The notes: generated by a model from the letters alone, not told the origin. Shown: positions 732 through 50,977, counted from the first letter of the whole stretch. The stretch is 63,837 nt of DNA, filler included, from Globobulimina sp. (GCA_003354225.1; 29 parts of 29 records of this genome joined end to end with filler, not necessarily neighbours in it), one strand, 5' to 3'. Made by a program: numbers and translations.

Positions 732-1204
732 AGTAGATAAATGGTATATTAACACATTTATGTTTCAAATATACGGTATTCAGAAATAAATAACAAATTC
801 GTGTTATTCTAATAGTGTTTGGTTTAAACTTTAAAGGGACTGAAAAAATAGAAAGTTAGTTAGTGGTTCAAATGAAAGTTCAATATATACAGCATGCAAC
901 GCAGATATTTCCTCCAAAAGGAAATTTCTGTAAAATTCCCATTGTGGGAACAGATCGAGAAACAAAATATATCCTTGCACATTGCGAATATGCGTATATC
1001 AACAAACTAGAATCAAATTATAGTAATAGATTATTATTTAATACTAGTCACAAATAAAAAAGATATTAATACATACAGCAATAAGAAAAAAAGAAAAATT
1101 TATTTTAGGAGATTACATGTCATTTTTGTTTCTATTGAATGACTAATAAATACTTTGAGCGATTCAGCAGTGCAAAATACATAATTTATAGTTATTATTT
1201 AGAT

Positions 1205-1557
1205 TTACGGTGTATATAAACAGTAACACCAAATGGAAATAGCCACAAAAAATGCAGCTGTAATATGAAGAGGTTGATCCACGTGATCGAGGGCACCAAC
1301 TTTCTCTGAGGTTTCTTTCACATATTTCGCTTTTTCTTCCTTGTTCATTACAACGACTTTATCTTCCTTTATATAATATTTGTTATGGTATAATTAATTT
1401 ATTTATTTGTTTGTAGACAGAATTACTTAACTTTGGCTCTGTTAAACATGAGCCATACGGTTCCCCAACCAACTACCAATGTGACTGCTAAATAAATGAG
1501 ATTGCGAACTGTATTTTGTGTTACAACATGTGTATAGCCAGCGATGTCGTCGATCAT
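1205..1557 (-). CDS. Small two-exon protein (~95 aa) with two hydrophobic segments, function unknown
   Basis: ATG at 1557; GT-AG intron 1367-1431 (65 nt). Spliced product MIDDIAGYTH...LIYLAVTLVVGWGTVWLMFNRAK|EDKVV...AAFFVAISIWCYCLYTP*. Missed by the ORF track. Confidence 0.65.
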
Positions 1558-1722
1558 TTTGATGTGTGATGTGTTGAGTAGATCAGAGTCGTAAGAAGAG
1601 AGGATGTGATAAGGAGTTTTTTTTCAAGATAAAAATGACAAATCAAGTACACTTACTCAGGATATTAAATGCAGCATTGTAACAAGCGACCATTGGTAGT
1701 TTGCACCGATAAGAATAACTTA

Positions 1723-2106
1723 TCAAAGTGTAAGAAGTCTTTTTGCTTCATCAAAAACGTTTTGTTTTGTCATATTTGCATCGATATCAATTTGAAATGT
1801 ATCTGGTTCATCGTCTTGCATTGCTTCAAATCCTTTCTGTATCAGTGGAGCTGTCACATTTTCTATTTCCTCAAGACTCGATCCAAATGTTTGTAGATAC
1901 TCATCTGCAGTTTGTCCAATCTCTTGAGCTCTTTCATGTGAGCGTGTAATCATACGCTGTGGCAATAATTCTGTCGAAGTATTAAGAATTATAAATATAA
2001 AATCCTGTTTCAATACGCTGCGTAAATAATGACGCACAGATCTTGGGTAAACTGATTGTGTCACTACAATGTTTTTGTCACAATATTCCATTCTGATTTT
2101 GTGGAT
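1723..2106 (-). CDS. C-terminal part of a probable P-loop small-molecule (gluconokinase-like) kinase
   Basis: Pattern IVVTQSVY..R..LR....FIFIIL......L..R...R and IDID. The 5' end is cut by the contig end. Confidence 0.4.
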   Translation of the reverse strand: MHKIRMEYCDKNIVVTQSVYPRSVRHYLRSVLKQDFIFIILNTSTELLPQRMITRSHERAQEIGQTADEYLQTFGSSLEEIENVTAPLIQKGFEAMQDDEPDTFQIDIDANMTKQNVFDEAKRLLTL

Positions 2107-2206
2107 NNNNNNNNNNNNNNNNNNNNNNNNNNNNNNNNNNNNNNNNNNNNTTAATTAATTAANNNNNNNNNNNNNNNNNNNNNNNNNNNNNNNNNNNNNN
2201 NNNNNN
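2107..2206. other. Artificial contig spacer (N44-TTAATTAATTAA-N44), first of 28
   Basis: The same 100-bp spacer recurs every ~2.2 kb (4313, 6519, 8725 ... 61635). Contig lengths between spacers fall steadily from 2106 to 2103 bp. Confidence 0.99.
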
Positions 2207-3689
2207 GAGATTTACTTTTTTCAAAGCCATTAAATCCACTCGATGCAGCACCAGTATATGCACCAAAATTTGGAATGATCACTTTATCCATTATATGCAT
2301 CTCAGGCAATGAATAATTATCATACATCTTATCCATTGAATCGCAGGTTGGGCCAAATATCCTCGACTCATATTTCTTTCCATCGCACTTTCCATCGCCA
2401 TAAGGAATAATAACTGGCTCTGCGTGATCAAAATACATACAATTAAACGATCCATACATCCCTTCATTTAAATAATACATAAACCCGCTGTCATTTCTTT
2501 TCTTTGCAATAATATCACAGATCAACGAATGTGATTTGGACACATAATATCTGCCCGGTTCCGCTATAAATTTATACTCCCCACCATCACCAAAATGATA
2601 CTGCAATGATTGATTAATAACACTCGCGATTTCCTCAAATTGAATACAATTCTTTTGATACACTATATCGCCGGGAAAGCCACCGCCTAAATCCAATATA
2701 TTCATCGCAGACGCATCAAAACCAAACCTTCCATGTGCGATATCAAACAAATACTTACTTTTCTCAATGGCAGTGGCATACACATTGCTGTCCAAACAAC
2801 CACTGCCGACATGAAACATGACACCGCATAAATTAACCTCATACTTACAACACGCTTCAAATATGTCATAAATAGAGCTTTTTTCATCGACATTCAGGCC
2901 ATATTTGCTGTTGAATTTACAAATGGACTGACTGTCATCCACTTGAATACGTAGCAATGCACCGCAATTTGGATGATATGTATTGATCTTTTCGAGCTCG
3001 TACTCATTGTCAAAGGTGCATAGATTTACACCAATGTCGCGGGCGTATTGTAAATGTAAGGGATGTTTGCATGGATGGGAGAATATTACCTTATCAGCGG
3101 TGATATCTATACCTGCGGAGTGCAGTAAATTAAATTCCGTTTTTGATGCACAATCAAAGGAACAGCCGAGGTAATTCAATAAGGAAATAATCAATGGATC
3201 GGGGTTGCATTTCACTGCGTAAAATGGGTGGATTGAAGGTAATAAATTGGTCCATAACGCATGTTGTCGGATAATGTCACCTAAATCTACCATGTAAAAG
3301 GCATCCATTGCATCGGTATCGCGCCTGGATTTTGTGAGTTTGTCTATCATTTTTTGTTGATTTGCTGTCAAATAGGATTCATTGTTGCTACTTTCGTGAT
3401 CATTGAATATTTCTATTTGATTTAAGATGTTATTGATTGTATTTGGTTGAGTGTTATTGGGGTTTAATGAAAATTGTTTAATCTGATTTGCAAATTGTAC
3501 ATGTTGCTGTTGGTTGTTATTGTGTTCATTGTGTTGCATTTTGAATGTGATTTCGTTTTTGTTATTTGCGTAAACAGATTGCGGAGCTGTTCGCACTTTT
3601 GTATTTGTGGCGGTGTAATTTAAACATGTATGTAATTGAGAGATTGATTTAGTTTTTCGATTAATTATATTTTTAAATGTGGCTAGCAT
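2207..3689 (-). CDS. ODC1: Ornithine decarboxylase (fold-type III PLP enzyme) with N-terminal extension; last codons truncated
   Basis: PFYAVKCN (PLP lysine), FDCASK, FHVGSG, LDLGGGFPG, AEPGRYY, YGSFNC..FDH, FGPTCDSMD, GAYT. Confidence 0.95.
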
Positions 3690-3850
3690 ATTGGTGAGAT
3701 GGTTGGTGGTTACTTGATAATTAAAGAGGTGTCAACTAATTCTGGTTCAAAATGGATTTGAGTCTTAAACATGAAACAATGTGGCTACAATAATCTGTAG
3801 GATAAGCTAGTGATTTAAATGGTGCTGTTTGCTATTAAATTCGTGACAGC

Positions 3851-3892
3851 ATGACTCTGGGATGCCTTTGGGATGCCTTTGGGATGACTTTG
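3851..3892. repeat. Short tandem repeat, 11-bp unit GGGATGCCTTT, about 3.5 copies
   Basis: atgactctgg gatgcctttg ggatgccttt gggatgactt tg. Confidence 0.8.
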
Positions 3893-3954
3893 AACTCAGA
3901 ATTATTCACTTAACGAATTCCAAAAGATAACCCCCCTCCCCCTGGTCGATAAGT

Positions 3955-4126
3955 GATGACTAGCTCACTTGAAGAAAATCTTAATATCAGGGTTCTCACC
4001 TCATAGACGACAGTGCAAGGATAGATTTTCCAGGATTCTAGCATTTGAAAGAAGAGACAAATCTATGCAATAAAGGTAAAAATTTGTCGTCTATGTGGTG
4101 AGAACCCTGATATTAAGTTAGTCATC
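3955..4126. mobile_element. MITE-like non-autonomous element (172 bp) with terminal inverted repeats and a target-site duplication
   Basis: Ends are GATGACTA...TAGTCATC. Inner 33-bp inverted repeat 3980-4012 / 4085-4117 with 1 mismatch. Flanked by the direct repeat GATAAGT at 3948-3954 and 4127-4133. Confidence 0.75.
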
Positions 4127-4412
4127 GATAAGTTACACTTTGCGTGAAAGTGAACCCCCTTTGGCGTGCTTTTAACTGCTTTTTTATATTATACTCGTTC
4201 GTATTATAATACAACACAGTTGTAATTTTCTCTCATTTTCAGACATCGCGTTTCGAAGCACTCAATACAACTAAAAAGAACAAATATGCAATATTATATT
4301 GCAGATCGTTCANNNNNNNNNNNNNNNNNNNNNNNNNNNNNNNNNNNNNNNNNNNNTTAATTAATTAANNNNNNNNNNNNNNNNNNNNNNNNNNNNNNNN
4401 NNNNNNNNNNNN

Positions 4413-5627
4413 AAAAATAATAATTACATTTACTAACGAGAAGGATTCGGATTGTTGTATGTCTGTTTTATTATTACATTGTACTTTTGAATTATTATTC
4501 ATATCAAATACATCCCAAATATTTAAAAAATTACTATGATCCAATTCCAGTTTGTAACCCCTATCAAATAAAGAAATCAATGAATATGGAATTTGAACGT
4601 GTAATATTTCCAAACAAAGCAAGGATAATTTACCAAAAATAAGGTTCAAATTACTGTTTAATTTCAAACCAATCGGGATGCCCATTAAATAGTTAATGTC
4701 ACATTTTAGTGAATTATAATCAAAGAATTTAATGTATATTGCCGAATTATAATGAAAATATAAAAAATATGCAAATATAATGCCAAACATCAAGTTAACA
4801 AAATGTTGAATAATATTCGACCAAATATCTAATGTTTCTTTGCGTTTTTTATGAATATTATTATAATTCGTGTTGTTATATTGCTCATTATCACACATGT
4901 CTGTATTGACTGCGTTGCCATTCGAATTCAAATATTTTATAATTTTAGCAAATGTTTTATTGTTTGTTACTAATTCCTTTGCAATGCGGCAATCGGATAA
5001 TATGACAAATGGTGGGATAAATACAATGAATGCACGAAATAATTCATATAAAATAGAGATACATTTGAAATATACACACAATAAATAGATAGATATGCTC
5101 CATAATGATGATGATGTACTATTAATATCACTACGTCGTCGATGGGGATGTAAATATTGATCAATATGCACAGATTGGTTGCATAAATGTAATATTTCAT
5201 CATACGACGATGCGGAACTATTATGGTAATATGGAGAAAATGTATTGCATAAATTTATTGAATGATATTTGATGATATAATAATCATTAATATCTTCTAC
5301 ATTCAATGAGATAATCTGTTTGAGTTTGAATGTTTTATCGAATTGTAACCAGATATTTGACCCAAAAATTCCCATTAAATCGGCACAGTCTTCTCCGATA
5401 TTTGTTGATCCGATAATTATGCATTTGAAGTTATTATTGGTTTTATTGATATAGAATAATTGAGTCAATAAATGATCTCTTTGAGTGTCATTGTTTATTA
5501 TTTCTATTGGATTTATCATACACGACGTAATTACTATCGTTGATTTGCAAATCCAGCCAATTAATATCGTTGTGTCCGCGTCATTCCATGGTGTGTATGG
5601 AACATGCACTTTCCAAATCACGTGCAT
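4413..5627 (-). CDS. PIGQ: PIG-Q/Gpi1-like GPI-GlcNAc transferase subunit, partial
   Basis: YLMGIPIGLKLNSNLNLIFG matches the Gpi1 signature (W/Y)LMGxPxGLKLNxxL, preceded by a TM segment. The 3' part is truncated or divergent. Confidence 0.75.
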
Positions 5628-5672
5628 GCTTTTACAAAAGTTTTTTTTTTTGAGTAACTTAACTGCTTTGTC

Positions 5673-6518
5673 ATGGCATCTTTGTTAAAAGCGCTAGCGT
5701 CAGGTTCAGCAGCATCATTGTTGCAGGTAAATGGCCAAGGTTGGGATCCATTATTGGTTGTAAATGCAGATAAAATCGCAGAGTTTACATGCAAAGGATG
5801 TGACAATATTTGTAAAGATGCTGTTGAATTATCGTGTGATCATAATGATGAAGAGCTAGATTTATATTGTAATGCTTGTTTAATTGAAGTGTTAAAGAAG
5901 AATAATCAAACTTGCCCAATTAATCCGTCACATAAACAAACAGCAGTTTGTTCATCACGTTATGCTCGAAAACAAATATTAAAATTAAAGGTATGTTTGA
6001 CCATTAATATATTAATATGATTTATATATATTTGTAGATGATTTCTATATTATAATCAAGGTTTTTTGCCCTTATTCGATACATTATAAAAACCAACATA
6101 AAAAAACTAAAAACGATAATTTGTTATATGACACAATGGATGAAAAAGAAGGGTCAAATATCAATGTAAATGATGATGTCAAGACTGAATGTGATTGGAT
6201 TGGAACATTAAACGATTTGATAAAAAATCACACCTCAAATTGTAAATCGTCCGCGTCATCAAATGATAGAATGAAGAAAACAGTCAATGTTATCAAGGAA
6301 AAATTAGATAAAATTCAATTAAATATGAATACACATGATCAGACATTCAATAATATGAAGCAAGAAATCATTGATTTGAAATTTTTAAATGACACTATGA
6401 ATTCTCAGTTGCTTTCATTGGTTAAAAAAAATGAATCTAAAATTATGAAATTAGAGCAAAAGCATCAATCAGAAATGATACAAATCAGAAAAACTATTGA
6501 TGATTTGATCAAGAATCA
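5673..6518 (+). CDS. RING/TRAF-type zinc-finger and coiled-coil protein, two exons, 3' truncated
   Basis: CKGCDNICKDAVELSCDH...YCNACL...CPINPSH. GT-AG intron 5991-6060 gives LKLK|VFCPYS...CDWIGTLNDL..H, followed by a coiled coil. Confidence 0.8.
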
Positions 6519-6618
6519 NNNNNNNNNNNNNNNNNNNNNNNNNNNNNNNNNNNNNNNNNNNNTTAATTAATTAANNNNNNNNNNNNNNNNNNNNNNNNNN
6601 NNNNNNNNNNNNNNNNNN

Positions 6619-6704
6619 CAGTCATTAGCTCGCGCGTCCTTCAATACTTGTGCCAATGCAAGCGCAAAATCCATTTTTTGTTCGTTGACTTCTTCCTCCG
6701 CCAT
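6619..6704 (-). CDS. RPS12: 40S ribosomal protein S12 (eS12), N-terminal fragment
   Basis: MAEEEVNEQKMDFALALAQVLKDARAND resembles the eS12 N-terminus MDxxTALqxVLKxAlxhDG. It runs into the contig end. Confidence 0.6.
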
Positions 6705-6821
6705 TATATGTTTCTATTTGGTTGCTTTTAAAACAAATAAAGGGTTCCTCGAAAGAAATATAAGCTGGTATGTTGTGATAAATGTGAGTTGAGTTTTGAG
6801 GTTTTTTTTATATTTGCAATC

Positions 6822-8321: not shown

Positions 8322-8607
8322 ATGATATTAATGACATTCATAATGTACTTTATAATAAAATTAAATGTTATCTTTTAACCTATATCTTCGAGACAACGCT
8401 CTATGAGTCATTTCTTAATATGTTTTTATCTCAACTGAAGTAATAATATTTAGATGAAAACCAGCTTAAACTAATCCTTTTGTCCAGACATATTAAAAAG
8501 TCCGAATACCTATTTTGCAATTGATATGACGAACAAAACTTATCTCTGTCAAAATAACAGCAATTCACTGTTCGGACTTTTAATCCTGTCTGAACAAACA
8601 TATCGCG

Positions 8608-8724
8608 TATCAAAACATAAGCAGGGACACCATGTTTTGCAAAGACTCTCACCCTATACTTTTGTTTTGAAAAGACTGTTTTTGGCAAAATCATGTCGTC
8701 GATCCCCTTCGTTTCAGAACCTGA
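8608..8724. repeat. Dispersed repeat family, copy 1 (other copies 15182-15298 and, partial, 40104-40260)
   Basis: Ungapped similarity to 15182-15298, with conserved blocks tatcaaaac, cagggacaccatgttttgc, aaaagactgttt, gcaaaatcatgtc and gtttcagaacctga. Confidence 0.85.
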
Positions 8725-9535: not shown

Positions 9536-9606
9536 TTTCGTAAAGTTTTTGATTTATCTCTTGTCTTCAGGCACGTTGCTGTCCTCAAAAACGAGAACAA
9601 CTTAGA

Positions 9607-11030: not shown

Positions 11031-11590
11031 TACCAGCACCAAACAGTTGCGTTGAATGTGTTGCGTATCTGCGTATATAATGCATTGATAATGTATCTAT
11101 TTTAGATAATGCAGTGGCGGCACCAGCGGCACATGGATATAATGCGTACATTGACCCAGCAAACCCAGATGACATTGTACTGAGTGTACCTATGAATGAT
11201 AATGAGTTTGTGATTGAAGATGAAGGCAAATCAAATGATAATTATACGTATGGCATTGGACAGAAATATGACGAAAAACATAAGTATGAGGTTAAGAAAA
11301 AAAATATTGCTGTGTCGGTTGGTGTTGATGACGATGATGATTTTGAACAAAGACCAAAAGTACAACCTGCTGCTATTGGTACGGTTGCAGCAAAAAAACA
11401 AAAAGGTATGATCTACCATGCAAATTATATGAGCAATGCTCATTGAGCATATTCTATGCAATATATACATATATAATTAGTGGTTGACAATCCATGGGAC
11501 GATGATGCGAAGCCAACGACCATAAATGACGCGTTTTTAAGTGGCAATAACGGGAATGTGCCAATTCATTGGCAACAATTTGTTGACTGA
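11031..11590 (+). CDS. 3' exons of an unknown low-complexity protein
   Basis: ORF 11114-11406; GT-AG intron 11407-11480; last exon VVDNPWDDDAK...WQQFVD*. Confidence 0.5.
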
Positions 11591-11768
11591 GTAAAAGCGT
11601 ATAAAAGGAGTATACCTGTTTCCCTCTCTTTAATTTTGTTTGCATTGTATTTAAATTCCATTTAACGCATAGTATTTCTAGAATTTTATTCTCTATTTTT
11701 TTTATGTCGATAGTTGTTAATTTACATATCCTTGCACTGTACGTATGACTCTCAAAGTTGTTAAACAG

Positions 11769-15181: not shown

Positions 15182-15342
15182 TATCAAAACTAAAACAGGG
15201 ACACCATGTTTTGCGTCCATTCACACAGTGTGACTTTTTTAAAAAAAGACTGTTTATTGCAAAATCATGTCTTCGATCCCTTTTGTTTCAGAACCTGATT
15301 GCAGTTGGTACACGTCCAGAATTGATGGTACATGCTGGATAC
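15182..15342. repeat. Dispersed repeat family, copy 2
   Basis: Aligns with 8608-8724. Both copies run into contig ends. Confidence 0.85.
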
Positions 15343-17647: not shown

Positions 17648-18179
17648 ATCGAAATACGATAAACAGCATCAATTGATATCACAGACAAAATATTCAGAGA
17701 ATGAGGCCATTAATAGAATGTTACATGCGATCGCAACCATAATTGCTATGAATGAAAAGGGTTATTTATCCACAATAAATAACGAAGACAGATCAGAATA
17801 TGAGTATCCTTTAACGTGCATTATCCATAAAACGTGGGCGCCGCCAGTAACAATCCCATATATTTATATTGGAATAAATAAAAAAATCGATATAAATAAT
17901 AATGCAGTGTTAACCTTCAATGATATGCAGGGAGAGGGCTATGTGAGTTTATATGGGCAGATAATTAATGCCAATAAGAAGCAAAAATTACTTATACATC
18001 AGATTGAATTTGTTGCCCCGCGATTTGGATTTGACGCAATCGATACGAATCCATTGATTTTGAAACGAGTTGAAAGTACCTTAAAAGCAGAAAAAGCAAA
18101 ATGGATTCGAGCCCGCTCTGGAAAGAAATGGCGAACAAATTATTCTGGATATTTAGTATTTGATGATAATGTAAAATAA
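17648..18179 (+). CDS. Hypothetical protein, C-terminal fragment
   Basis: 168-aa ORF open from near the contig start; no recognised motif. Confidence 0.45.
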
Positions 18180-18445
18180 ATCGATCCAAAATTCTAAAAT
18201 AAATCCAAAATTTTACTAGCTAGCAATGTGTGTAATGTCGTTTGTTGTATTTATTTTAATTTATGTAATTTACATCTGACAATTTTGTTTTGTGATTCAG
18301 TTATCCACGAAACAGACGTACACTGTTTTTGGTTCATATTCTCGCCAATTAAGTTAGGTCAAGTGCAAGGAGTCAATATTTCCGATGGTTAGAACTACTA
18401 CAAAAAAAACAAAGTGTTTTCGACTTAAATTCGCAAGCCATAACA

Positions 18446-19752
18446 ATGAGACTCGCATTATCAGCAATATTATTCGGATATGCATTTGGAGCGTGGTGGG
18501 ATGGGCCAAAATGTTCATGGCAAACACCATCATTGTTATTAGAAACCACACAAAGCACCGTACTCGATTTTGGTGGTTGGAAAGGTGACTCGTTGTTAGG
18601 TTGTTGGAGTGATGATTTTTCGTGCGGCTCCACCCAATTACAAGGCTCATTTACTAAAAAATGGAATGAATGGTTTACAGGGATCGAGCAACAAGAAACC
18701 TTTACATATACCACCGAAGTAAAGCGATGTATTGGTGATAGTGCCTGCGATCAATTAGCAGGCGGTGAAGATTCGTGCGAATATTCGGCATATACCTTTC
18801 AAAAATGGAGGCCGCGAAGTTGCAACGAAACTGCTGACTTTAACGCAGAGACTGAAGACCATGACGTTAAATTATATTTTCATTGTTGTAATGACCCAAA
18901 TTGGTGCAATAAAGAGGTTGATTATGGCACATGTTCTCGCTCTGATCAATTCTCGCTGTATATGTTCGATTTGAATGTGTGTTGGAATAGTTTTAAATAT
19001 GATTTTATGAAAGATTTGCTCTGCGATAACCAAACTGGAGATATCTTGACCTATTCTGAGCAATGTGCAAATAGTGACGGTTCGTGGCTTGCTGCGAGCA
19101 GAGCGGAGCCGGAATGTAGGTATCGAGTGACCTGTGCTGCTGAATTAAAGTATGCGTGTTTTTATTTTGTAAAAACGTTTTTGTAATGTATAGTGTGTAG
19201 GGAGTTATTGGTAGAATATGGCAGTTGTGCTTGCGGAGCAGCAGCGAACAATGGTTTTAGTGGCACGTTTATTGGGACTGCGATGGAGAATAATTGGAAT
19301 CGGTGGTGTCCAGGCATTGAGATTGAGTGTGCTGCGGATGGTGTGATGAAATTAATATATACGTATTGGAGGGCACGGTATAAATTTAGAGTGGCTGTGG
19401 CCAGCGCTGTTATTACCGAAGCGGTTAAAGCAAGGTTTCGAGAGATAATTGCAGAGAAATTAAATGTGGATCCGGAGCGGGTGAGTTTGAGCGAAGACAC
19501 TACTGCGACCCGAAGGAGATTAGTTGGTGAAACCACTGCATTCAATGTGGACATTTCATCGGATGATGCAATTACAAAGAATTGGTTTGTAACGCAATTA
19601 AATTTGCAGACAGGTGCTATTCAGGCTGATATTTCAAGTGCATTGAATGGGACAAATGTTACGGACGCATCTGTTGATGCATTGGTGAGTCAGGCGGAGG
19701 AAACCTCCACGGGCACATATAGTGGAGAGGTGGTGACTGATGGAGAGGAGAC
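18446..19752 (+). CDS. Secreted cysteine-rich protein, two exons, 3' truncated
   Basis: Signal peptide MRLALSAILFGYAFG; Ly6/three-finger-like CCNDPNWCN; probable intron 19150-19200; RRRL motif. Confidence 0.7.
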
Positions 19753-19852: not shown

Positions 19853-21698
19853 CAATCCCACTGCCATTCCAACATCAAATCCAACCCAACACACTTTTGC
19901 TCCTACACAACCTACACCAGCTCCAACAAAGGCTACCGGCATACCCACATATCCACCAACCACGGCGAGGCCTACTACCAATCCTACAAAGTTTGCTTAT
20001 TTATTTATTTATTTATCTCTCTCCCCACAAAAACGTTGTTGTTTTTGTTTTCAACACGAAAGTGTTCCCACAGACAATCCGACATCTCAACCAACAACAA
20101 ATCCGACATTCCAACCAACAACAAATCCAACCTCAGATCCAACATATGAGCCAACCTCAGATCCAACAGCGGAGCCAACCGCAGATCCCACATATGAGCC
20201 AACGTCAGATCCCACATCTGATCCAACCTTCAATCCAACCACAAATCCAACAGATAATCCATCGTCTTCTCCTACTGCCAGACCAACCGGTGGACCAACC
20301 GAGGAACCAACAGTGCATCCTACCTCTCAGCCAACCTATGTTCCAACAGATGACCCCACCGCCGATCCTACAACAGATCCGACCCATGAACCTACTTTCC
20401 ATCCCACATCGGACCCTACAACGGAGCCTACTGCAGAACCAACGTCTGATCCAACCTCCGACCCAACTAATGATCCCACCGCTGATCCCACGATTGATCC
20501 GACTGCGGATCCAACTGCAGATCCAACAAATGATCCCACTGCAGATCCAACATCGGACCCTACAAATGACCCCACTGCAGATCCTACGACTGATCCAACT
20601 GCGGATCCTACACAGTTATAGATATATGATTATATTTTACAGTTTTTTACAATATAATTATTTTTTTATAATGCTAAAAGAGATCCAACTACGGTTCCAA
20701 CACCAGATCCAACGACGTATCGTCCCACACCCAATCCAACCGTGACCGAAATGAGTACAGAAGCTCCAGACAATTTAGTAAATGCGACCAGCGGTTTATT
20801 TCTTACCACGGCGCAATTATTGCAAGCAATTTTCGTGGCACTTGTATTGATAATATTTTTATGTTGCTGCGGTTTAGTCTTTTATTGCCATCGAAAACGT
20901 AAAAAACATAAAAAAAATATGAAAATATTGGCCAGTTCGACCAGTGAGGTCGAAGGAAATGGAACGGATTTTGCAGAAACGGGGAAGAAAGGAAATGAGA
21001 CTTATATTGCTATGACGAGACTGAATTCGATGAGTTCCGTTGGAAGTGACGAGGAGGCGAATAATGATAAGGAGGAAGAAGAAGAGAAAGATGGCCAGGA
21101 AGCTGATGGTGTGACCACACCCGCCAGACAACCACGCGCAACCGATGGAGCCGGCGATGAGGCATAAGAACCTGTGGTGCCCGCATCGCCCCGACAAGCA
21201 CCTCCGTCACTCATTGCGCAACCACCACAAGCACAGCCACCACAACAATATAATGTGCAAGCAGTGAATACAATGATGGGTATGTTGCCGATGGGAATGG
21301 GCATTGGGCCGATTGGCGGTATGTTACCAATGGCGATGGGCCCAATGCAGATCCAGATGGGTCAAATGCAGAATCAAATGGCGCAGATGGCTCAAATGGG
21401 GCAGATGGGGCAGATGGGGCAAATGGGTATGGCTCCCATGGGAATGAGTTTGCAAAGTATGTCGAATCCGATGTTGCCGGGGAGTTTACCGAATACATCG
21501 AGTATGCCAAATTTATTGCCGCTTCCGGTGGGACCAAAAGCTAACAATCAACAGAGGGAAACAATGGATGGTAGCGGCGAAGCAGGCGGTGGTGGATCCG
21601 GAAAAGAAACGGATGAATATGAATATTTTTATGAAGATGAGGATGAAAATGATGCAATGTATGCAAAATCAAATAATAATGAAACTGCTGGCCAGTAA
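19853..21698 (+). CDS. Mucin-like (PTxDPT repeat) single-pass membrane protein, with an in-frame TAA at 21165-21167
   Basis: PT(A/S/N)DPT repeats; introns at about 19991-20062 and 20615-20680; TM LLQAIFVALVLIIFLCCCGLVFY; basic stop-transfer RKRKKHKK; M/G/Q-rich tail in the same frame after the stop. Confidence 0.8.
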
Positions 21699-27535: not shown

Positions 27536-27748
27536 TATCGATTACTCCAATAGATTAATAAAACCTTGCTAAACTGATCCGTATATTCGTTTTTTAGGAG
27601 GGTCTATCCTTGCACTCAGAAGAGAAATCTGTTCGCGTCATCGCGTGCCATTTAATCAGGAAACGTCTGGATTGAAAACATTAAATTTCAAAAAAAGAAC
27701 GATGTGCTACAATTGATAAGAACCAAAAAAACAACAACCAAGCATTGA

Positions 27749-33479: not shown

Positions 33480-33840
33480 AGTAAGTATACCGGTCAAAAC
33501 AAAACACATTATAAAACAATACAAAACATGATAAAACAGTGATAAAACAGTTTAAAAAACAATACAAAACATATTATAAAACATAATAAAACACATTCTA
33601 AAACAACATAAAACAATTGTAAAACACACAAAATAATTTATAAAACACAATAAAACAATTTCTGAAACAAAGTAAAACATTTAACAAAACACAACAAAAC
33701 AATTGATAAAACATAATAAAACAAATGAAAAACAACATAAAACAGTGGCAAAACAAACAATAAATTAGAAAACACCAAAAAAACTGTTACAACTTAAGTC
33801 AAGATAACTGAAGTACAGATAATGACACGAAGAGACCATG

Positions 33841-33907
33841 GTCCACGTAGCTCAATTGGTAGAGCATTGCTTAACCAAAGATGCAGGTTCGACTCCTGCC
33901 GTGGTCA
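33841..33907 (+). tRNA. tRNA-like (Lys-like) pseudogene or SINE head with a shortened anticodon arm
   Basis: A box TAGCTCAATTGG, D stem GCTC/GAGC, T arm GCAGG TTCGACT CCTGC, acceptor GTCCACG/CGTGGTC. Only 17 nt between the D and T arms (TTG CTTAAC CAA). Confidence 0.8.
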
Positions 33908-34768
33908 ATGGGTGCGATCAAATATAATCAGTTAAGCAATATACACGATACGCAAATTCGCATAATATATTTACAGGTAAAATTATGGAGGATTATTGAA
34001 TGAGTGATTGAAGGAATTTGGAATTGAAATAATTGAACGAGGTTCAATGAATGATTAATTTTGAAATTGCAAGATCTGAATTATGTCTTGCTTATTTTTT
34101 GGTGTTTAGAAGGGTTGGGACATAAAAAAATGGCAAAAAGTTGCTAATAAAAGAAAGAAGCAGTGGTTATTGGCATTTGGAAATTATTATTTGTTTCAAT
34201 TGTTTGCAAGGCTCTTGTTTCGTTAATTAATTCTTCTGCATATGTTCCACATAAATGTTGCATTTTTTTACGATTGATATCCTTGCACTTTAGTTACTAA
34301 TGAAACGCTGCAGTTAGGGACATAGGTTATTTATTAATTAATGAATTAGATATATTTCAACGAAACAAGAGCCTTGCAAACAACTTCTTCTTTCTTTACA
34401 AATACTAAAATTTATATTCAATTTTATGGCTTGACAGCAACGGTTCAAACTTCGCGACTGTAAATCGCACAAATCCTCCACGGCGCGAATCATTCCTTTG
34501 ATCACATTCTTGCCGTCCTCGCATTGCGACAATACGCGCTGAAACACATTGGTTCCCCAAAGATTATCACTGTAAAATATGGAGCCCTGCACTCGGTCAA
34601 TGCCGTGGTCATCAGTCACAATCTCAAATTTCTCCTCTTTCTCCTTTCAATTCCAAATTCCTTCAATCACTCATTCAATAATCCTCCATAATTTTACCTG
34701 TAAATATATTATGCGAATTTGCGTATCGTGTATATTGCTTAACTGATTATATTTGATCGCACGCCCAT

Positions 34769-34835
34769 TGACCACGGCAGGAGTCGAACCTGCATCTTTG
34801 GTTAAGCAATGCTCTACCAATTGAGCTACGTGGAT
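34769..34835 (-). tRNA. Second, inverted copy of the tRNA-like unit
   Basis: Reverse complement is identical to 33842-33907. Homology continues about 120 bp downstream (34645-34768 vs 33908-34029) with a 2-nt indel. Confidence 0.8.
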
Positions 34836-35675
34836 ACTGTTAAAGTAAGTTTTTTCTATTGTGATGAATCAATTAACTGCAAATTCCAAAACAAAAAGCA
34901 AAACACAATAAAACATTTGTAAAACTGCACAAAACACATTATAAAACGCAATAAAACACAATATAAAACATAATAAAACAAGTGATAAAACACCATGAAA
35001 CACAATATAAAACACCTTAAAACAATTTATAAAACAACATAAAACCCATTGTAAAACTGACTAAAACAATACAAAACACATCAGAAAACAATATAAAACA
35101 TATTATAAAACAATAAAAAACAAATTGTAAAACAACATAAAACAATTAACAAAACACTGTGTTTTGTTTTGACCGGTATACTTACTNNNNNNNNNNNNNN
35201 NNNNNNNNNNNNNNNNNNNNNNNNNNNNNNTTAATTAATTAANNNNNNNNNNNNNNNNNNNNNNNNNNNNNNNNNNNNNNNNNNNNCTCGAATAAAGCGT
35301 TTATCCTATGGATTTTATTATTTTTATGCTGGGTTTAGTATAGCAACCGCAATAATAATAATAACATGGCGATTAACTATTCATAACATATAATTATAAT
35401 ATGTAATATGTTTAACGGTATCAATAAATGGTGATTGTGAAGTGGATCGCGACTGTGATTGTGATTGCGATGTAGTTAATGTGATTATTGTCTCATTCAT
35501 CATGCTTTGTGTAGGCTGTAGGCAACATTGGTTCATATGTTTTATATTTATTTCCACGGGAACATTGGCAAAAGAATGAAAAGATATTGAATCTATAAAT
35601 GTTATAATCAATGCATTTATCAACTGCAATGATAACGAATTTGATAAAATAATTTTGTGTGTTGTTTCGGTACAT

Positions 35676-36805: not shown

Positions 36806-36988
36806 GATCAACTTTTTTTAATCATTTGCGAATTGTTAGAGAAAAAGATTAAGTAAATGTTTGTCTAATCATAATTTATAATACAGTACGATCTTTATTT
36901 ACAGTTTCTAATCGATACGAGAAGATGAGACGAACATTTACTTAAGCTTTTTCTCTAACAATTCACAAATGATTAAAAAAAGTTGATC
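36806..36988. mobile_element. MITE-like hairpin element (183 bp) with 61-bp inverted repeats
   Basis: 36806-36866 vs the reverse complement of 36928-36988: 3 mismatches. Confidence 0.8.
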
Positions 36989-43741: not shown

Positions 43742-44102
43742 CGAACAAATTTTTTTTTTTCGGTGTCAAATTATCCCGCCATCAATGAACTCCGGTGTCA
43801 AAACAAATTTTTTTTTTCTATAGTGCGGGTGACTCGAGTACGTTCAAGTCCGTGAGCATACCTTATGTATGATCACATGGACTTGCACTCAGGCTGAACC
43901 GCACTCAGGCTGAACCGCATTTCCCATAAGTCTATTTCATCTTAGTGAAAACATAAATCTATCGAAAAAAATAAATTTTTATAAACTATTTTTTGACTTT
44001 TTNNNNNNNNNNNNNNNNNNNNNNNNNNNNNNNNNNNNNNNNNNNNTTAATTAATTAANNNNNNNNNNNNNNNNNNNNNNNNNNNNNNNNNNNNNNNNNN
44101 NN

Positions 44103-44804
44103 AAAATTTTTCAAGAAATCCAACCAAAATTTGAGGAATCACGTTCAAATCAAGTCAGACATAATGTCAGTCAAGGATTTGATATCGATATTGTGCTTTC
44201 AAATCTATCAGTGCCAGTCCAGCACGATATCGATATCGATGCAACATACGACATAGTTGGACAGCCTCCACATCTCAAAAATTTAGGATACAGAAACATG
44301 TTTCTGTTTACAAAATCTTTGTTAGAATTTAGTTTACCATATTCATTTGCTGTTTGTGTCATGTATTGGTCCTCTATTTATAGTGGACATTTTGAGGATA
44401 CACAACAAGCACTTTACTATATAAACACGCATGGCATTATATTTATGCTACAATTCATTGATTATTATGCTTCAACATATCAATTAAGATTTATTTATGG
44501 TTCTTTATGGATATTGATATTTGCAGTTATTTTGTTTGTATGGATGTGGTTGTTTGAAGAATTAAAATTTGTGAATCCGTGGACAAAAAAAAACCAGCTC
44601 TATGCCATTTGTGATTTGCATAATGATGCAATTAAATCAACATTTATGTTCTGTATTGGCATCACATTTATTATATTGCTTTATTGGTTTATCGTTTTTA
44701 CAAAGAATATATCGTTAATAAAGTGGAAGCAATCAAAACAAGCTGATAATAAACATTTAAGTGCTGATAACAGTGACCTTGATTTCTCAGATGTAACACC
44801 ATAA
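44103..44804 (+). CDS. Rolling-stone / FAR-17a(AIG1)-like multipass membrane protein, partial
   Basis: VCVMYW...; INTHGI..MLQFIDY; four or more TM segments; LY..CD. Confidence 0.55.
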   Translation, partial: KIFQEIQPKFEESRSNQVRHNVSQGFDIDIVLSNLSVPVQHDIDIDATYDIVGQPPHLKNLGYRNMFLFTKSLLEFSLPYSFAVCVMYWSSIYSGHFEDTQQALYYINTHGIIFMLQFIDYYASTYQLRFIYGSLWILIFAVILFVWMWLFEELKFVNPWTKKNQLYAICDLHNDAIKSTFMFCIGITFIILLYWFIVFTKNISLIKWKQSKQADNKHLSADNSDLDFSDVTP

Positions 44805-44900
44805 AAACAAACAATATGTACATTATTATATTTATATTCTATAAATTTTTTGATCATCTTTTGAGCCTACACAAGTTAAATAGTCACGTAAATTAAATAG

Positions 44901-45863
44901 TTGCATAGGTTTCCTAAATACTCACTAAATAGTGCTTTTTTATTCTCAGTAAACAAGGTGCATCATTTCGAAAAAAGTAATATGAATAATATGCAATCAT
45001 CGTTCCAACCAGTGTCGAAACACGAAATTCGCGAAATGAGTGCTGGATTTTCATTATGTTGTACTGAACAAAAAAGCAAATCAACATCACCCACAACAAC
45101 AATATTTCGAGCCAAAAGGCGTGGAAATAATAACATTAATAATAATGACGATAATTTAATAAAAGAAAATGATATATTTGAGAATATGACACAGGAACAA
45201 TATATGGGATACCAACAACAATCAATGTCCAAACGAATGAAACGGAAAAGGAAATTTGATGTATTTTCTTCGGGTTCCAATATGTCATTAAATGAAATAT
45301 TACAAAATGCAAAGACATTCAGAGTACCACATTATGCAATGTTTTATGTCCGAATCAATGCACAAATAATTATGCAAGAAAATAATAATAATAATACCGA
45401 TAACAATGATACAATAAATAATATATTTTATCCCACAAAAGAAGAATGTTTAATAACTCGATCGATTCGTGTGTCATCAGAGTGGGTGGCAGCATATAAT
45501 TCGTTTGAAACTGCACATAATATCGCATGGAAACAATTAAATCCAAATGGTAAAATACATGAATATCAAATAAATGGATTGCATGGTATCATATTGTTGA
45601 ACTTGGATGAAATGAGAAATAATAAATTAAATAATACATTAAATTTAACTGATAATGAACAAGATATTCAGCGATGGGTATTAGATCATGGCTATTCTGG
45701 GTTTATTATGAATGCTTGTTTTCATTTTGTTAAACCTTATTTATATTGGAATTTATTGGATGATAATAAACAATTAAAAGTTAAACAAACTTTAATTTCC
45801 GACATGTTTCAATCTACAATATCAAAACCAAGACATTCTTCGTGGAAACCTACATTCACATAA
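44901..45863 (+). CDS. Hypothetical Asn-rich protein
   Basis: 320-aa ORF; the start is uncertain. Confidence 0.55.
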   Translation: MHRFPKYSLNSAFLFSVNKVHHFEKSNMNNMQSSFQPVSKHEIREMSAGFSLCCTEQKSKSTSPTTTIFRAKRRGNNNINNNDDNLIKENDIFENMTQEQYMGYQQQSMSKRMKRKRKFDVFSSGSNMSLNEILQNAKTFRVPHYAMFYVRINAQIIMQENNNNNTDNNDTINNIFYPTKEECLITRSIRVSSEWVAAYNSFETAHNIAWKQLNPNGKIHEYQINGLHGIILLNLDEMRNNKLNNTLNLTDNEQDIQRWVLDHGYSGFIMNACFHFVKPYLYWNLLDDNKQLKVKQTLISDMFQSTISKPRHSSWKPTFT

Positions 45864-46413
45864 ATTATCTTCAAAAATAAATAAAACACTAATAAATGTC
45901 TCATTATCTCTGTTTTAATTTAGGTCTGGGGTTTAAGGTTAAATTATTATTAATATTTTATTACACCATCCTTGCACAGTTGCTCTCACGTGGTTGCCCC
46001 CTAAATTAAGTAGTTGGATATTCACCAAATGGGTCCAAAAGTATATCTGCTATTCAAGTTGTATGCAAATTTCAGGGAATTGGCAATATGCAAAAATAAA
46101 CATACAAAACAGACTGAAAAAACATACGTCTATGCAACAAAACAAAACAAAACAGTTGAATGAATCGAATAAATAAACATCAAAAAAAACAAACATGTCG
46201 AAGTCANNNNNNNNNNNNNNNNNNNNNNNNNNNNNNNNNNNNNNNNNNNNTTAATTAATTAANNNNNNNNNNNNNNNNNNNNNNNNNNNNNNNNNNNNNN
46301 NNNNNNGAAACAAGTATTAAGAAAATTATTGACAAACGAGAAAATATTATCTGTTTTATATTCTCAAATATTCCAAACTACAACAAAATCAATTATAACC
46401 AAAATGAATCAAA

Positions 46414-48046
46414 ATCCGCTACAACTTTCATCGTTTCTCAATCAACAATGTGTCACAAAACGAATTCGAAAGCATCAAGTTTCGGATCAAAACCTTGATT
46501 TTATCAAACAAATAGCTACGGCTGCATTCGATTGATTGAGTTAGTGCTTCATTGTTATAATGTGTGTTTTCGTATAATTTTATATCAATGATCAAGCAGA
46601 TTCAAGCTAACTTGCTTAGATAAACTTTTTGCACACTACAAAAAACATTTTTTAACTAAAACAACACATCTACGCCATGTCACATACAAATGGTAAACCT
46701 CCACCAGAATATTCAGATTGGGATAGGCGATCTCGACCGGGATTAACGGTGTGTGACTGTGCATGTATCAACACGCAAAATCGACACAAAAAACAAAACA
46801 AATGAAACAAAAAGGAACGATTATATGAATCAGTAGATATACGTCGCGATGCAACACAAAAGTTAATACCAAACGTGATTGCAGAAGAATTAGATAATTA
46901 TGGATTGCGTAGCGAATTACAACCTTTTCATATTTCGGATGAAAATGTGAAGCAAACCAAAGAATTGATCGATAAACAGTTGCGTGACTGGAAGGGATTA
47001 CGTTGGTGGAAATTTAAGACAAAACCGGATTGTTGGAGTAAATGGTTCCAAAAAGCGAAATGTTGGCAGGATCAAAACCAGTATAAACCAGTGGGCATAT
47101 TTTGGTGTTTAATATTTGATGAATTGAAAGAATATACGAATCGCATTGCGTGCAAATTAAGCCAAGAACGGTCCAAAAGAAACGAATTAGAAACATGTTT
47201 ATATAGCAAATGCATTTTAGAAATCTTGCAACACAGCGTACAGTTTTCACGAACCCGAAAGACGCCATTATTAAATGTGAGAGTATTAACTCACAGCAAA
47301 GAATTCCAAGAAAAATTATTTAAAATCAACAACGGTTTCACCTTAGCATCATGGAAAAAAAATGCAGTGCCTAAGAAACAAATGGCAGTGTTGGTAAATA
47401 AGCAATGTTTGGAACATGCGGTGGTTGTTTATCAAGCAAGTCTTGACTCATTGCAACAAATCATGGCCAGTTACTGTTATTTGTTTTGAATGTTTGCGTC
47501 AAATAACATCGTATATAATATACAGACACCGATTTAGAAGCAAGTAATGTTGATGATAGCGACAATAATATTCAAATTAATAATATTAGTGACAATAATA
47601 TTGGCTATGGTCCGTGTCGTGGTCCAAGTTCCGATATATTTCGAGTGGAATCGCAGAGATATTCACCAATGTCATGTTCGGATTTAGCATCACTGAGCGA
47701 TGAAGTATCCATAGCATCGTCGAGTAATAATAACGAATCGTTTGAGTTAAGTCGCTTAAGTATGGTGAACAGGCAATTGCGGGCAGAATTAGCTGCGATT
47801 AGAGCCCGGTTAGCTGACAGAAGAGAAGAGACATTGCAATCGTGGGTGAGAATCGTTATGGAACAGCAATATCCACCAACTGGCGGTATGCATTTAAATA
47901 ATGATAATGCGCCATTTTATGATGATAGTCAACATGAATGTGATATTTATAATGATTATCCGCCACCGTATCCACCATCATTGCCACCCCCATATCCTCC
48001 GACATTACCACCATTTCAGCCTGGTTTTGCAGAATATCCCTATTAA
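46414..48046 (+). pseudogene. Multi-exon hypothetical gene, apparently disrupted
   Basis: Successive + strand ORFs (46329-46535, 46875-47489, 47645-48046) separated by intron-like segments, with in-frame stops. Confidence 0.4.
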
Positions 48047-48510
48047 AATCCAAATCGTTTTTAGTTCTACTTTTTTTGTGTCCCCTCCTCCTACGCGGGG
48101 TGTGTGTGTTTTATTTTTTGTGTTTAAGTTAATGAGATAAGAATGGATGACGTATTACAAGCGATATAAGTCATAAAGCGTCTGTACATTTTTTATCTAA
48201 ATATAAATAATACAGTTTTGATATATTTCTGTTTTTCAATACGTACCGCCTTTCTTCGTATTAATTAATTTTGTTATTTATAAAACGAAAACAAATGCTA
48301 CCAGTTTAGTAACATTACGGGCAATATTTGTTGCGTTGTGTTTTTGTTTTGATTTTTTTTTTGCATTATGTCGGGATTTATTTTTTTATTGTTTTGTTGT
48401 ATGACATGAANNNNNNNNNNNNNNNNNNNNNNNNNNNNNNNNNNNNNNNNNNNNTTAATTAATTAANNNNNNNNNNNNNNNNNNNNNNNNNNNNNNNNNN
48501 NNNNNNNNNN

Positions 48511-49300
48511 TAACCTGTCCATTGATATATTTCTAATCAATCGCTTAAAGACTGTGTTTACAAACACTACATTTGCCTTATCATCATGTACCTATTATAC
48601 GTATACTGTTTCATTATCTATTTATTGGCTTATTTGGATGCTAAACACTGCCTTTATGGTAATTGAGCGTCACGCTCAACCATATAATGTGTATACGGAA
48701 TCAGTCGACAACAACGGAAACGGAACAACGTGTCTCGTGACAGCAGCACATGGCACAGCAAAAGGTATTAAATTAGTTCTTGCATTGGCTATGATCGGAT
48801 TATTTTTGGGCAATTTAATTGTTTGGATGCTATTTACCAGGAAGTTATATTTATTATTAAAGAAAGCGTCAGAAATAACTGCAATGACAAACAGTGAAAT
48901 TGATATAACGCACTCCGAAAATGAATTTAGTGATTTGATGAAAGATCAAACCATGTTGGTCGGTCTAATGATATTTGTTACTATTTTTGCATATTTATTT
49001 ACAATGATTATCGAGTTTGGTCAATTATTAGTGACAATAAATTCTGTCAATACACTGTTTACAATATTTTTATCATTTAAATTTAATCGGTATTATTTTG
49101 AAATATTTGCTTGTCATAAATGTAGCAAAGTGTGTTGTAAATGGTTTGAAAATATTATTACAAATAAAATAGATTTTGCAAATGAACTGGAATCTACAAA
49201 TACAAAATCAAAAACAAGTTACAAAATAGATTTGCCAGGTATTATTACAGAAAATATTGCTGAGTCAGTTGATGCTGAGAATATAACTCCTTATAATTGA
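48511..49300 (+). CDS. Orphan 7TM (GPCR-like) protein, C-terminal part
   Basis: RL...FTNT.FALS, four TM segments, LFTRKL..L, IFLSFKFN..YF...C..C. Confidence 0.7.
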
Positions 49301-49425
49301 TTAATTTATTGTGCTTTCTGTGTTTATTCACATAAATAATGCATGGGGTAGGCTTTATAAGTTATAACCATCCAGAAATGGTTCATATCTGTGCTCAGTA
49401 TAAAAAAAAACTTTTGAGTTAAAAA

Positions 49426-50118
49426 ATGCAGAATATAAAATGTATTTCAGTTGGTGACAAAGGTGTTGGAAAGACTGTATTACTTATTTTCTACACCTGT
49501 AACTCGTGGGGACCAGACTATATCCCTCATGTTTTTGATGAGTACGATGCAAATGTTATGGTTGATGGGAAACCAATTAGACTGAGTTTAAATGATACAA
49601 GTGCTAATGATCAAGATAAATCACGGAGAATAGATAAATATGCTACTTTCAAACCTGATGTATTTCTAATATGCTTTGATTTAATGAGACCTCAAACATT
49701 GTACAATGCAAAATCGTTTTGGGTCAAAGAAATAAAGAAACATTGTCCGGATGTGCCATATCTTTTAGTTGGAAACAAATTGGATTTAAGACGTCATCAT
49801 AATTTAGAGCCAAAATTGAAATATATTATGTTAAACAATAGAAAATCAAGATATTTGGTTGACGGATTTATTCATAAACATTCACACATTTCCGTTCCCA
49901 AATGCCTGGTTGACATTTTCTACTCATATTATTATGAATCAATGCCAATTACATTCGAACAAGGAACACAAATGGCCACAGATATTGGAGCCAAGGAATA
50001 CATTGAAACCTCGTGTATAACACAAGATGGAGTCAAATGTGTTTTTGATCAAGCTATTCGTTGTGCATCTCAACATAAGTTTTGTCCTAAAAAATCTAAA
50101 CATTGCATAATAATGTAA
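49426..50118 (+). CDS. Atypical Rac/Rho GTPase with an enlarged insert and CaaX
   Basis: MQNIKC..VGD.GVGKT, YIP.VFD.Y.ANVMVDGKP, DVFLICF, LVGNKLDLR, GAKEYIETS, VFDQAIR, C-terminal CIIM. Confidence 0.92.
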   Translation: MQNIKCISVGDKGVGKTVLLIFYTCNSWGPDYIPHVFDEYDANVMVDGKPIRLSLNDTSANDQDKSRRIDKYATFKPDVFLICFDLMRPQTLYNAKSFWVKEIKKHCPDVPYLLVGNKLDLRRHHNLEPKLKYIMLNNRKSRYLVDGFIHKHSHISVPKCLVDIFYSYYYESMPITFEQGTQMATDIGAKEYIETSCITQDGVKCVFDQAIRCASQHKFCPKKSKHCIIM

Positions 50119-50977
50119 TCCATCAAATTCCACCATCACGTTCGCAACTGAGAATAAAATTACTGAGTTAAGGACAAATGTTTTCGAACATCTTAGATTT
50201 TCTACTATAAAAACATTCAGTTGTAGACAATATCTCTTCCCTTTCATCTAGTCATCACCAACTAATATGAATTCAAAAGCATTTTTATCAAACCCAAGCC
50301 ATCCAGATCAGGATTCATTGAAAAGTTTCAATCATGGTTTGTTATTTACTTTACTAGTTTTTTTACCTCCCCCTAAAACTAACAAATCACACTTTTCTTT
50401 TTGAAGGCCTCACTTAGTAATGAAGAAAATAAACACAAAACTTTTTTTACTGATAATAATAAAAAAAAATATTATTATTTTTAATTGATATTTATAAACC
50501 TCAATTATATTAAAAGAAATAAAAAAAATTAATTATTATTAAATTTTATACAAGAATTATTTTAAAAAATATATTAATATTATAAATTAAATAAAAAATA
50601 TTGATCTTTTTGTANNNNNNNNNNNNNNNNNNNNNNNNNNNNNNNNNNNNNNNNNNNNTTAATTAATTAANNNNNNNNNNNNNNNNNNNNNNNNNNNNNN
50701 NNNNNNNNNNNNNNTACAAATGTACAGTTAACAATAATAGCCATTTCGAACAATTTTGTATATATTTAGAATGTTGACAATAAGAGATGAACCACTGTAT
50801 GTACATAATTATGTTTATATATTTTATAAAAAATTATTGGGAGACGTTTTTGTACAGAAAAGTCTAAATATCTTACAAGTCAGTGCTTAACTGCCAGCAG
50901 CTGCCTATACCGTTTCTAGACATATGATGTATGTGCAAGGATAAAATAATAAAAACAATGATATATATACAAGACAG

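Follow-up and report, generated by a model that had tools for sequence, protein, structure and literature searches.

The window analyzed here is a stretch of 63,837 bases composed of 29 separate contigs, each 2103–2106 bp long and joined by N44-TTAATTAATTAA-N44 spacers, which together sample 61 kb of a fragmented assembly almost at random. Our subject is a short word, ATCCTTGCAC, that recurs in its non-coding DNA. The G+C content is ~32%, and the open reading frames (ORFs) are long and uninterrupted, covering ~71% of the window according to a codon-usage score trained on the 23 longest ORFs. Their products are typical eukaryotic proteins and include ornithine decarboxylase, WDR3/Utp12, SIR2, mitochondrial ribosomal protein L34 (MRPL34), and Med22, as well as a Gpi1-like protein, a mannose-6-phosphate-receptor-like (MRH) protein, FUN14, and RING fingers. 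The best named homologs are transcriptome proteins from EukProt 87524_1 (74% identity), MMETSP1385 (54%), and MMETSP0190 (56%), the last two of which we take to be foraminiferan. The AT-rich host protist is probably a foraminiferan, and the assignment to Rhizaria made in an earlier note on this DNA is plausible.

ATCCTTGCAC occurs exactly seven times, counting both strands, in seven of the 29 contigs, at the coordinates and on the strands that the earlier note had reported. Because the contigs are divided by N spacers, all seven sites lie in separate contigs, as had been claimed. The base before the word is T in six of the seven and the base after it is A or T in all of them, and the suggested expectation of well below one occurrence is matched by the mean of 100 dinucleotide shuffles, 0.13 (shuffle maximum of 2). 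When all k-mers, collapsed by strand, were compared with a third-order Markov model without prior knowledge of the word, it ranked first among 11-mers (six contigs vs 0.026 expected) and among 12-mers (four contigs vs 0.006 expected). Among 10-mers it was second by ratio (79.5), the first (90.5) being a word of the other strand that overlaps ATCCTTGCAC by one base. No 10-mer with at least five G/C bases reached seven contigs in 250 Markov-simulated contig sets (the maximum was six, once); in the same class, 11-mers never exceeded four contigs (six in the real data) and 12-mers never exceeded three (four in the real data). In a laxer class with at least four G/C bases, seven contigs were reached in one of 300 simulated sets. 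Within the window, the comparison of k-mers with a Markov background proposed earlier thus finds the word enriched, and its recurrence is real and not due to post hoc selection.

The form CCTTGCAC occurs nine times, the two occurrences beyond the exact seven being at 18363(−) and 39302(+); the latter is within a well-scoring ORF and is probably there by chance. One-mismatch variants number seven against 3.2 expected, and only that at 18363 is non-coding. The word is linear and all-or-none, in that no enrichment is seen for its 6- to 7-base parts alone, and on the other strand it reads (W)GTGCAAGGAT(A). Across eight oriented sites (the seven exact copies and the near-match at 18363), aligned as 190-nt stretches, conservation extends over ~12 bases, and over at most 17 in pairs. 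Permissive BLAST and alignment of these stretches found only 13–17 shared nt and no flank homology, which rules out a single repeat family. The statement that flanks are not shared is therefore correct among the copies of the window but not for site 4013, whose flanks are a high-copy repeat in read data (see below).

A common fold was sought in both orientations and gave energy z-scores of −0.7 to +1.6, with no shared pairing of the word. Rfam (at the gathering score and at E up to 1) returned two transfer RNAs (tRNAs) and weak unrelated matches, none overlapping a site, and ARAGORN found nothing. Given no fold and no Rfam match at the sites, a structured RNA family and a tRNA, small nuclear RNA, or other RNA gene are ruled out. 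The word shows one polar feature: an A6–A8 run occurs within 10–55 nt after GTGCAAGGAT in four of the eight sites vs 10% of non-coding positions (p = 0.006, post hoc). No second co-occurring motif within 100 nt was found after correction, the best 5-mer having p = 7e-5 before correction for ~2,000 tests.

Several other identities were considered for the word itself. An excision footprint is ruled out, as the word is non-palindromic and has no flanking direct repeats. An ATG is found 8–12 nt beyond the word in five of the eight sites; it is rejected as a gene start, as the ORFs it opens comprise 2–58 codons and score as non-coding. U12-type 5' splice sites follow the consensus /RTATCCTT, and the word resembles them in containing TATCCTT, but its invariant GCAC is outside that consensus. 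The base before TATCCTT is A in three of the seven copies, C in two, T in one, and never G, while copy 6 reads CATCCTT. With the preceding base not consistently A or G and the copies located after stops and between genes, outside reading frames, a U12-type site is ruled out, and so is a U2 5' splice site reading of GTGCAAGG, because copies lie past stop codons. The AG found 42–53 nt downstream of the word is unremarkable for this composition.

Table 1. Copies of the word and the repeat structures that contain them, with positions counted from the first base of the window.
Feature	Position	Strand	Setting
Copy 1, aTATCCTTGCACa	970..981	+	982-nt convergent gap
Copy 2, cTATCCTTGCACt	4012..4023	−	within miniature inverted-repeat transposable element (MITE), adjoining inner end of right arm
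MITE, 172 bp	3955..4126	−	inverted-repeat arms 3971–4012/4085–4126; 72-nt interior ending in the word
Target-site duplication (TSD) ACTTATC, right copy	3948..3954	−	also found independently by the scan for terminal inverted repeats (TIRs) with TSDs (TSD 7)
TSD ACTTATC, left copy	4127..4133	−	TIR+TSD scan
Copy 3, aTATCCTTGCACt	11727..11738	+	322-nt convergent gap; T8 run 23 nt upstream
Near-match, one mismatch, CTCCTTGCAC	18363..18372	−	tandem gap; sense strand GTGCAAGGAG; A8 run 29 nt beyond
Copy 4, cTATCCTTGCACt	27605..27616	+	207-nt tandem gap of minus-strand genes; sense strand GTGCAAGGATA, then A6 run
Copy 5, aTATCCTTGCACt	34278..34289	+	134-nt loop of perfect 25-nt inverted repeat; T7 run 8 nt upstream
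Inverted repeat around copy 5	34200..34383		arms 34200–34224/34359–34383, 25 nt, 100% complementary
Copy 6, cCATCCTTGCACa	45967..45978	+	sole copy without preceding T; 229 nt from contig end
Copy 7, tTATCCTTGCACa	50932..50943	−	inside MRH ORF; 218 nt from contig end

Copy 1 is located 230 nt past the TAA of ORF 3–737(+) and 742 nt from the stop of a P-loop-kinase-like gene, 1726–2106(−), whose C-terminus is supported by ~250-residue homologs that end at the same place. Copy 3 is 31 nt from the stop of MRPL34, a minus-strand gene, and 281 nt past the stop of 11081–11443(+), a Vps36-like last exon with homologs that carry the Vps36 domain; the partner genes 11081–11443 and 1726–2106 are thus supported by homologs in two of the convergent gaps. 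Copy 4 is 133 nt past the TAG of a RING-finger gene and 70 nt ahead of the ATG of the next gene (27535), copy 5 is 49 nt from the stop of ORF 34341–34646(−), and copy 6 is 104 nt past the TAA of ORF 44901–45860(+). The ornithine decarboxylase ATG (3689) lies 323 nt downstream of copy 2. Copy 7 falls in the last eight codons of the stop-to-stop ORF 50919–51857(−), 14 nt before its TAG, and the final 80 residues of that ORF look non-protein-like. The near-match is 183 nt past the stop of 17649–18176(+), and its reported position upstream of a gene is real, as it lies 73 nt ahead of the ATG at 18446. The earlier note had placed all copies outside genes, which stands for six of the seven (outside strong ORFs) but not for site 50933, and had described distances of about 30–230 nt past stop codons, which apply at 31, 49, 104, 133, and 230 nt but again not at 50933.

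The ORF that precedes copy 1 is itself unusual. ORF 3–737(+) is one open frame but a mosaic of two unrelated genes: residues 2–214 resemble the phenylalanyl-tRNA synthetase beta chain (the best match is an archaeal structure, E = 1.5e-37), while residues 211–244 resemble residues ~120–154 of Kae1/TsaD (E = 1e-8), after which a stop ends the frame. More exons of either gene were looked for downstream of the ORF, and none were found. It may be a fusion of gene fragments, a pseudogene, or an assembly chimera.

Six of the seven exact copies fall outside strong ORFs in a window that is mostly ORF (binomial p ~0.003). Convergent gaps contain a copy in three of four cases, divergent gaps in none of four, and tandem gaps in one of nine (two of nine with 18363 included); among open flanks, copies are present in one of 19 on the 3' side (two of 19 with 50933 included) and one of 13 on the 5' side. 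Read on the sense strand, GTGCAAGGA(T/G) follows stops at 31, 49, 133, and 183 nt, whereas TATCCTTGCAC follows a stop in two cases, by 230 and 104 nt, and precedes one in a third, by 14 nt. Orientation relative to neighboring genes is therefore mixed, as had been described, with four reverse and two forward among the 3' flanks that have the word. Such a mixture relative to the nearest gene end is expected of a DNA site and not of an RNA signal. We considered whether unseen convergent genes at sites 6 and 7 might rescue a single orientation and rejected this, as the candidate ORFs are Phe-rich nonsense. The start of the word lies 80 nt ahead of the following ATG in one occupied tandem gap and 83 nt ahead in the other. 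Because only six of 36 scorable 3' flanks have the word, in either orientation and at a distance that varies from 31 to 231 nt, a general terminator or poly(A) signal is ruled out.

The only copy embedded in a demonstrable mobile element is copy 2. The arms of the MITE (42 nt) are 88% complementary, its outer tips (3955–3965/4116–4126) also pair with 91% complementarity, and it contains no ORF that scores as coding. Read-depth data for contig 2207–4312, the only one covered, came from contigs of four public runs, here X1–X4 (at most three samples, from three studies). In X4 the summed contig depth is 1055–2556 over 3911–4123 vs 5.5–5.9 over the flanks and the ornithine decarboxylase gene, with the MITE at ~190–460 times flank depth; in X1–X3 it is 55–274 within the MITE vs 9–21 in the flanks. 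Foreign contigs, representing other copies of the MITE, diverge at 3953–3955. The 3955–4126 element is thus a bona fide high-copy MITE, with TIRs, a TSD, high copy number, and a small non-coding body. At position 4025, just 3 nt away from the word, X4 has a summed depth of 1276 vs ~5.5 for single-copy DNA, which implies ~200 or more copies of this stretch as inferred from summed contig depth, and the word and its MITE context are present with zero mismatches in high-depth contigs of runs from other studies. The opinion that the word does not look like a transposon remnant accordingly fails for site 4013, and it is weakened at 34279, which lies in the loop of an inverted repeat.

Other sites were scanned for comparable structures (TIR of 11 nt with at most one mismatch and TSD of at least 3 nt, within 350 nt of the site). 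No TIR+TSD structure was found within that distance at five of the other seven sites. The apparent TSDs at 34279 are palindromic parts of the arms themselves, that at 18363 is just 3 nt long, and the overall rate, three of eight motif sites, is not above that of random non-coding positions (30 of 150). The arms of the inverted repeat around copy 5 each contain a CCTTGCA-like core, and the repeat is nested within a 190-nt inverted repeat with two tRNA genes.

Additional repeats surround these elements. A second high-depth repeat occupies 4195–4312, at the end of the ornithine decarboxylase contig, with a depth of 100–148 vs ~5.5 in X4, so that together with the MITE about half of the 580-nt upstream flank of ornithine decarboxylase is repeated DNA. 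Contigs of X1–X3 match the ornithine decarboxylase gene (2207–3860) at ~96% identity, with indels just upstream of the gene and differences that are mostly transitions, many at multiples-of-three spacing; these matches indicate that close strains or species are present in public data and have the MITE family in common. Contigs of three runs, which are RNA only by our guess, end at 53 and 171 nt upstream of the start codon of ornithine decarboxylase, for which low coverage or divergence is an equally possible cause. A 20-base piece of the MITE arm had no exact matches in metagenome_contigs, and a search of the same collection with the ornithine decarboxylase protein found no relative. Contig 33480–35186, which contains copy 5, is a series of nested inverted repeats (33480–33508/35158–35186; 33842–34029/34645–34834, 190 nt and 99%; and the innermost pair in Table 1). 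The 190-nt arms each have a tRNA gene, 33841–33907(+) and 34769–34835(−), called by Rfam and not by ARAGORN, and the whole structure may be either a palindrome of natural origin or a chimera produced by amplification. Another MITE-like element, at 36806–36988, has 65-nt arms that are 94% complementary and 53 nt apart, and does not contain the word.

As a linear, unstructured, and strict 10- to 12-mer that is non-coding, independent of orientation, and found preferentially on the 3' sides of genes, the word is best accommodated, as far as sequence can indicate, in the class of protein-binding sites. To that extent the binding site proposed in the earlier note survives, while its general terminator does not and a pure promoter fits badly. 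We favor, tentatively and well short of conviction, the reading that a sequence-specific DNA-binding factor recognizes TATCCTTGCAC (on the opposite strand, GTGCAAGGATA) at the 3' boundaries of genes, where the site would act in a manner similar to a roadblock or insulator and would be spread in part by MITEs. The putative factor site would mark non-coding gene boundaries, mainly on the sides where genes end, about once per 9 kb, and would act through DNA rather than RNA. The bound factor and the adjacent A/T tract might keep the gap open and block or end transcription leaving the neighboring gene. The interior of at least one MITE family contains the word, which this family would have copied to a few hundred more places; the MITE copy shows a route by which such sites spread. 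The enrichment, the non-coding setting, the absence of RNA structure, the mixed orientation, and the MITE are directly shown, whereas that a protein binds, that the site acts at boundaries or in termination, and that the host benefits are inferred.

The general regulatory factors of budding yeast, such as Reb1 and Abf1, provide the closest comparison, as their sites exclude nucleosomes and act as roadblock terminators. Like the word, these sites are short, near-invariant, and intergenic, occurring about once per 10 kb; they have a poly(dA:dT) flank and act at the level of DNA whichever gene adjoins, as is proposed here by analogy. They differ in sequence and lineage, and yeast sites are concentrated upstream of promoters, whereas three of the eight sites here are in convergent gaps. 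With respect to the features of a roadblock site, the intergenic location and strict core are present, the tract accompanies four of the eight sites, and orientation is mixed, in a sample of only eight sites. Roadblock termination is the subject of 10.1101/384859 and PMC9371891. A supposed resemblance to a fission-yeast terminator-factor site was looked for in the literature without result and is discounted.

A number of observations weigh against a boundary site. There are only eight sites in 61 kb, and no positional bias is significant alone. Convergent gaps constitute ~13% of the non-coding DNA and hold three of the eight sites, and divergent gaps total 417 nt, hence their emptiness says little. 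The spacing of the tandem-gap copies from the next ATG would also suit a promoter element. Were ORF 1208–1393(−), for which no family support was found, a real gene, five of seven gene-linked copies would share an orientation, favoring an RNA signal. Finally, an exact word with few degenerate variants is also an outcome of identity by descent of a mobile element. A broader proposal, which we regard as rather doubtful, is that foraminifera-like protists would use a strict 11-bp word and its polar A/T tract to mark boundaries throughout the genome (~one per 9 kb), read by a factor that stops transcription between closely packed genes, with MITEs spreading the word and rewiring boundaries; roles in firing replication origins or in driving thousands of very small non-coding transcription units would be less likely.

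The alternatives differ chiefly in whether the word would act in RNA, act on a downstream unit, or have no host function at all. If it were an element of 3' untranslated regions, which we consider unlikely, GUGCAAGGAU(A) would be present on the mRNA 30–230 nt past the stop with an A-rich stretch 10–30 nt later, and could serve as a site for an RNA-binding protein (in localization, stability, or translation) or as an auxiliary cleavage/polyadenylation signal for a subset of genes. The four copies with GTGCAAGGA(T/G) on the sense strand are consistent with this, as they include both tandem-gap copies and have their A6–A8 run 9–29 nt beyond the word, a distance like that of a poly(A) signal; in addition, the distribution among gaps tracks the number of 3' ends per gap (convergent, tandem, then divergent). 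Yet copies 6 and 7 are opposite to the nearest gene, as is copy 1 unless an unsupported ORF of 47–62 aa is real; the ORFs able to rescue orientation look non-coding, so that unseen genes are needed for two or three copies. The low share of 3' flanks with the word means that it would not be a general signal, and the MITE copy is upstream of a gene. A precedent for a strict 3'-end word is found in Blastocystis, where, according to PMC4159000, TGTTTGTT lies 4 nt downstream of the poly(A) site in ~96% of 2,419 genes. That word too is short, strict, lineage-specific, and just past genes in a poorly studied protist, but as described there it has a fixed distance and one orientation, in contrast to the sparse, variably spaced, and bidirectional copies of the window. 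A promoter element is quite unlikely, whether as a factor site ~80 nt upstream of starts or as the upstream motif of tiny non-coding units with unique downstream sequence, indifferent to neighboring genes. The tandem-gap spacing of 80 and 83 nt, the polar A/T tract beside the word, and the MITE copy 323 nt before the ornithine decarboxylase ATG would fit the former, and unique flanks, mixed orientation, and convergent-gap copies are all compatible with the latter. Against both, the ORFs that follow the word are either short or non-coding by score, and a conserved start or length feature after the word was sought and none was found; moreover, the three convergent-gap copies could serve no protein gene, the 322-nt gap being bounded by two homolog-supported genes, and none of the four divergent gaps has a copy. 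The small-unit version resembles the Ruby motif upstream of the 21U-RNA (piRNA) genes of Caenorhabditis elegans, which is reported (PMC4015492 and PMC6436959) to be likewise a short conserved word with an A/T-rich spacer, followed by sequence that is not conserved and scattered among genes in many copies of either orientation. Ruby units differ in that they reportedly form clusters in two chromosomal domains and that small RNAs have been mapped to them.

It is unlikely, to the same degree as the RNA element, that the word is transposon-derived and without host function, its excess resulting from amplification of MITEs or other mobile elements in which it might be the element's own site, and its seemingly unique flanks belonging to families too sparse to recur in 61 kb. 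Site 4013, in a proven MITE with ~200 or more copies, is the only hard, non-statistical evidence among all the readings, and it points in this direction, as do the second repeat from 4195 on the same contig, which makes the intergenic DNA repeat-rich, the perfect inverted-repeat loop around site 34279, and an all-or-none form that fits identity by descent. In plants, MITEs have amplified transcription-factor motifs that were detected as over-represented 10-nt words (PMC5950925), and the situation is similar here in that such a word is inside a high-copy MITE and is thereby placed beside genes; in the plant cases, however, most copies of the words are in MITEs, whereas one of the eight sampled sites here is in a recognizable one. 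The eight sites also lack homology beyond ~12–17 nt, TIR+TSD structures are missing at most of them and are no more frequent than in the random background, and the word is present at one MITE arm only, unlike a transposase-binding site. If the flanks had decayed while all seven copies kept the 11-mer intact, this alone would point to selection on the word. Chance or a technical artifact (adapter, primer, or assembly chimera) is highly improbable. The motif was found post hoc in a very fragmented assembly, and the mosaic ORF 3–737 could be a chimera, but none of the 250 simulated sets reaches the real values for 10-, 11-, or 12-mers with at least five G/C bases, and the word recurs without mismatch in its MITE context in runs from other studies. 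Furthermore, an adapter remnant would be longer than 10–12 bases, and the copies are interior to contigs.

A full-text literature search for the word returned PCR primers only. Searches of main texts on foraminiferan and rhizarian genomes returned no described intergenic motif of this kind, and a 2026 rhizarian genome paper uses the term "motif" in its main text only for a telomere-like repeat. On the evidence of sequence, the word is a putative lineage-specific, short, sequence-specific intergenic cis-element with a demonstrated MITE-borne copy. Next to nothing has been published on the cis-acting signals of foraminiferan and other rhizarian nuclear genomes. A strict and frequent word of this type could be used as bait for the factor that reads it and as an aid to defining gene boundaries in fragmented assemblies, and it offers a handle on a possible spread of regulatory sites by mobile elements in this lineage. 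Even if it were only transposon debris, the word would be a useful marker of a repeat-rich intergenic landscape.

Several further features of the window concern its genes and repeats. The MRH and FUN14 genes, on the minus and plus strands, respectively, are divergent, and their first ATGs are ~28 nt apart (51842–51871), leaving an extremely short shared 5' region. Three pairs of well-scoring ORFs in the same frame are separated by an in-frame TAA: 18353–19183/19187–19750 (TAA at 19184–19186), 20658–21164/21168–21695 (21165–21167), and 55123–55776/55783–56592 (55777–55782, a double TAA). Elsewhere, neighboring ORFs overlap in different frames. The in-frame splits may be very short introns, read-through, pseudogenes, or sequence errors. 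A second dispersed repeat, with the core GCAAAACATGGTG(TCCCTG), is present at 8608–8724, 15182–15298, 38547, 40220, and 55123, that is, in five contigs vs 0.03 expected for a 12-mer, and two of its copies are 81% alike over 118 nt. The assembly is probably interrupted by this repeat, three copies of which fall at contig ends or close to them.

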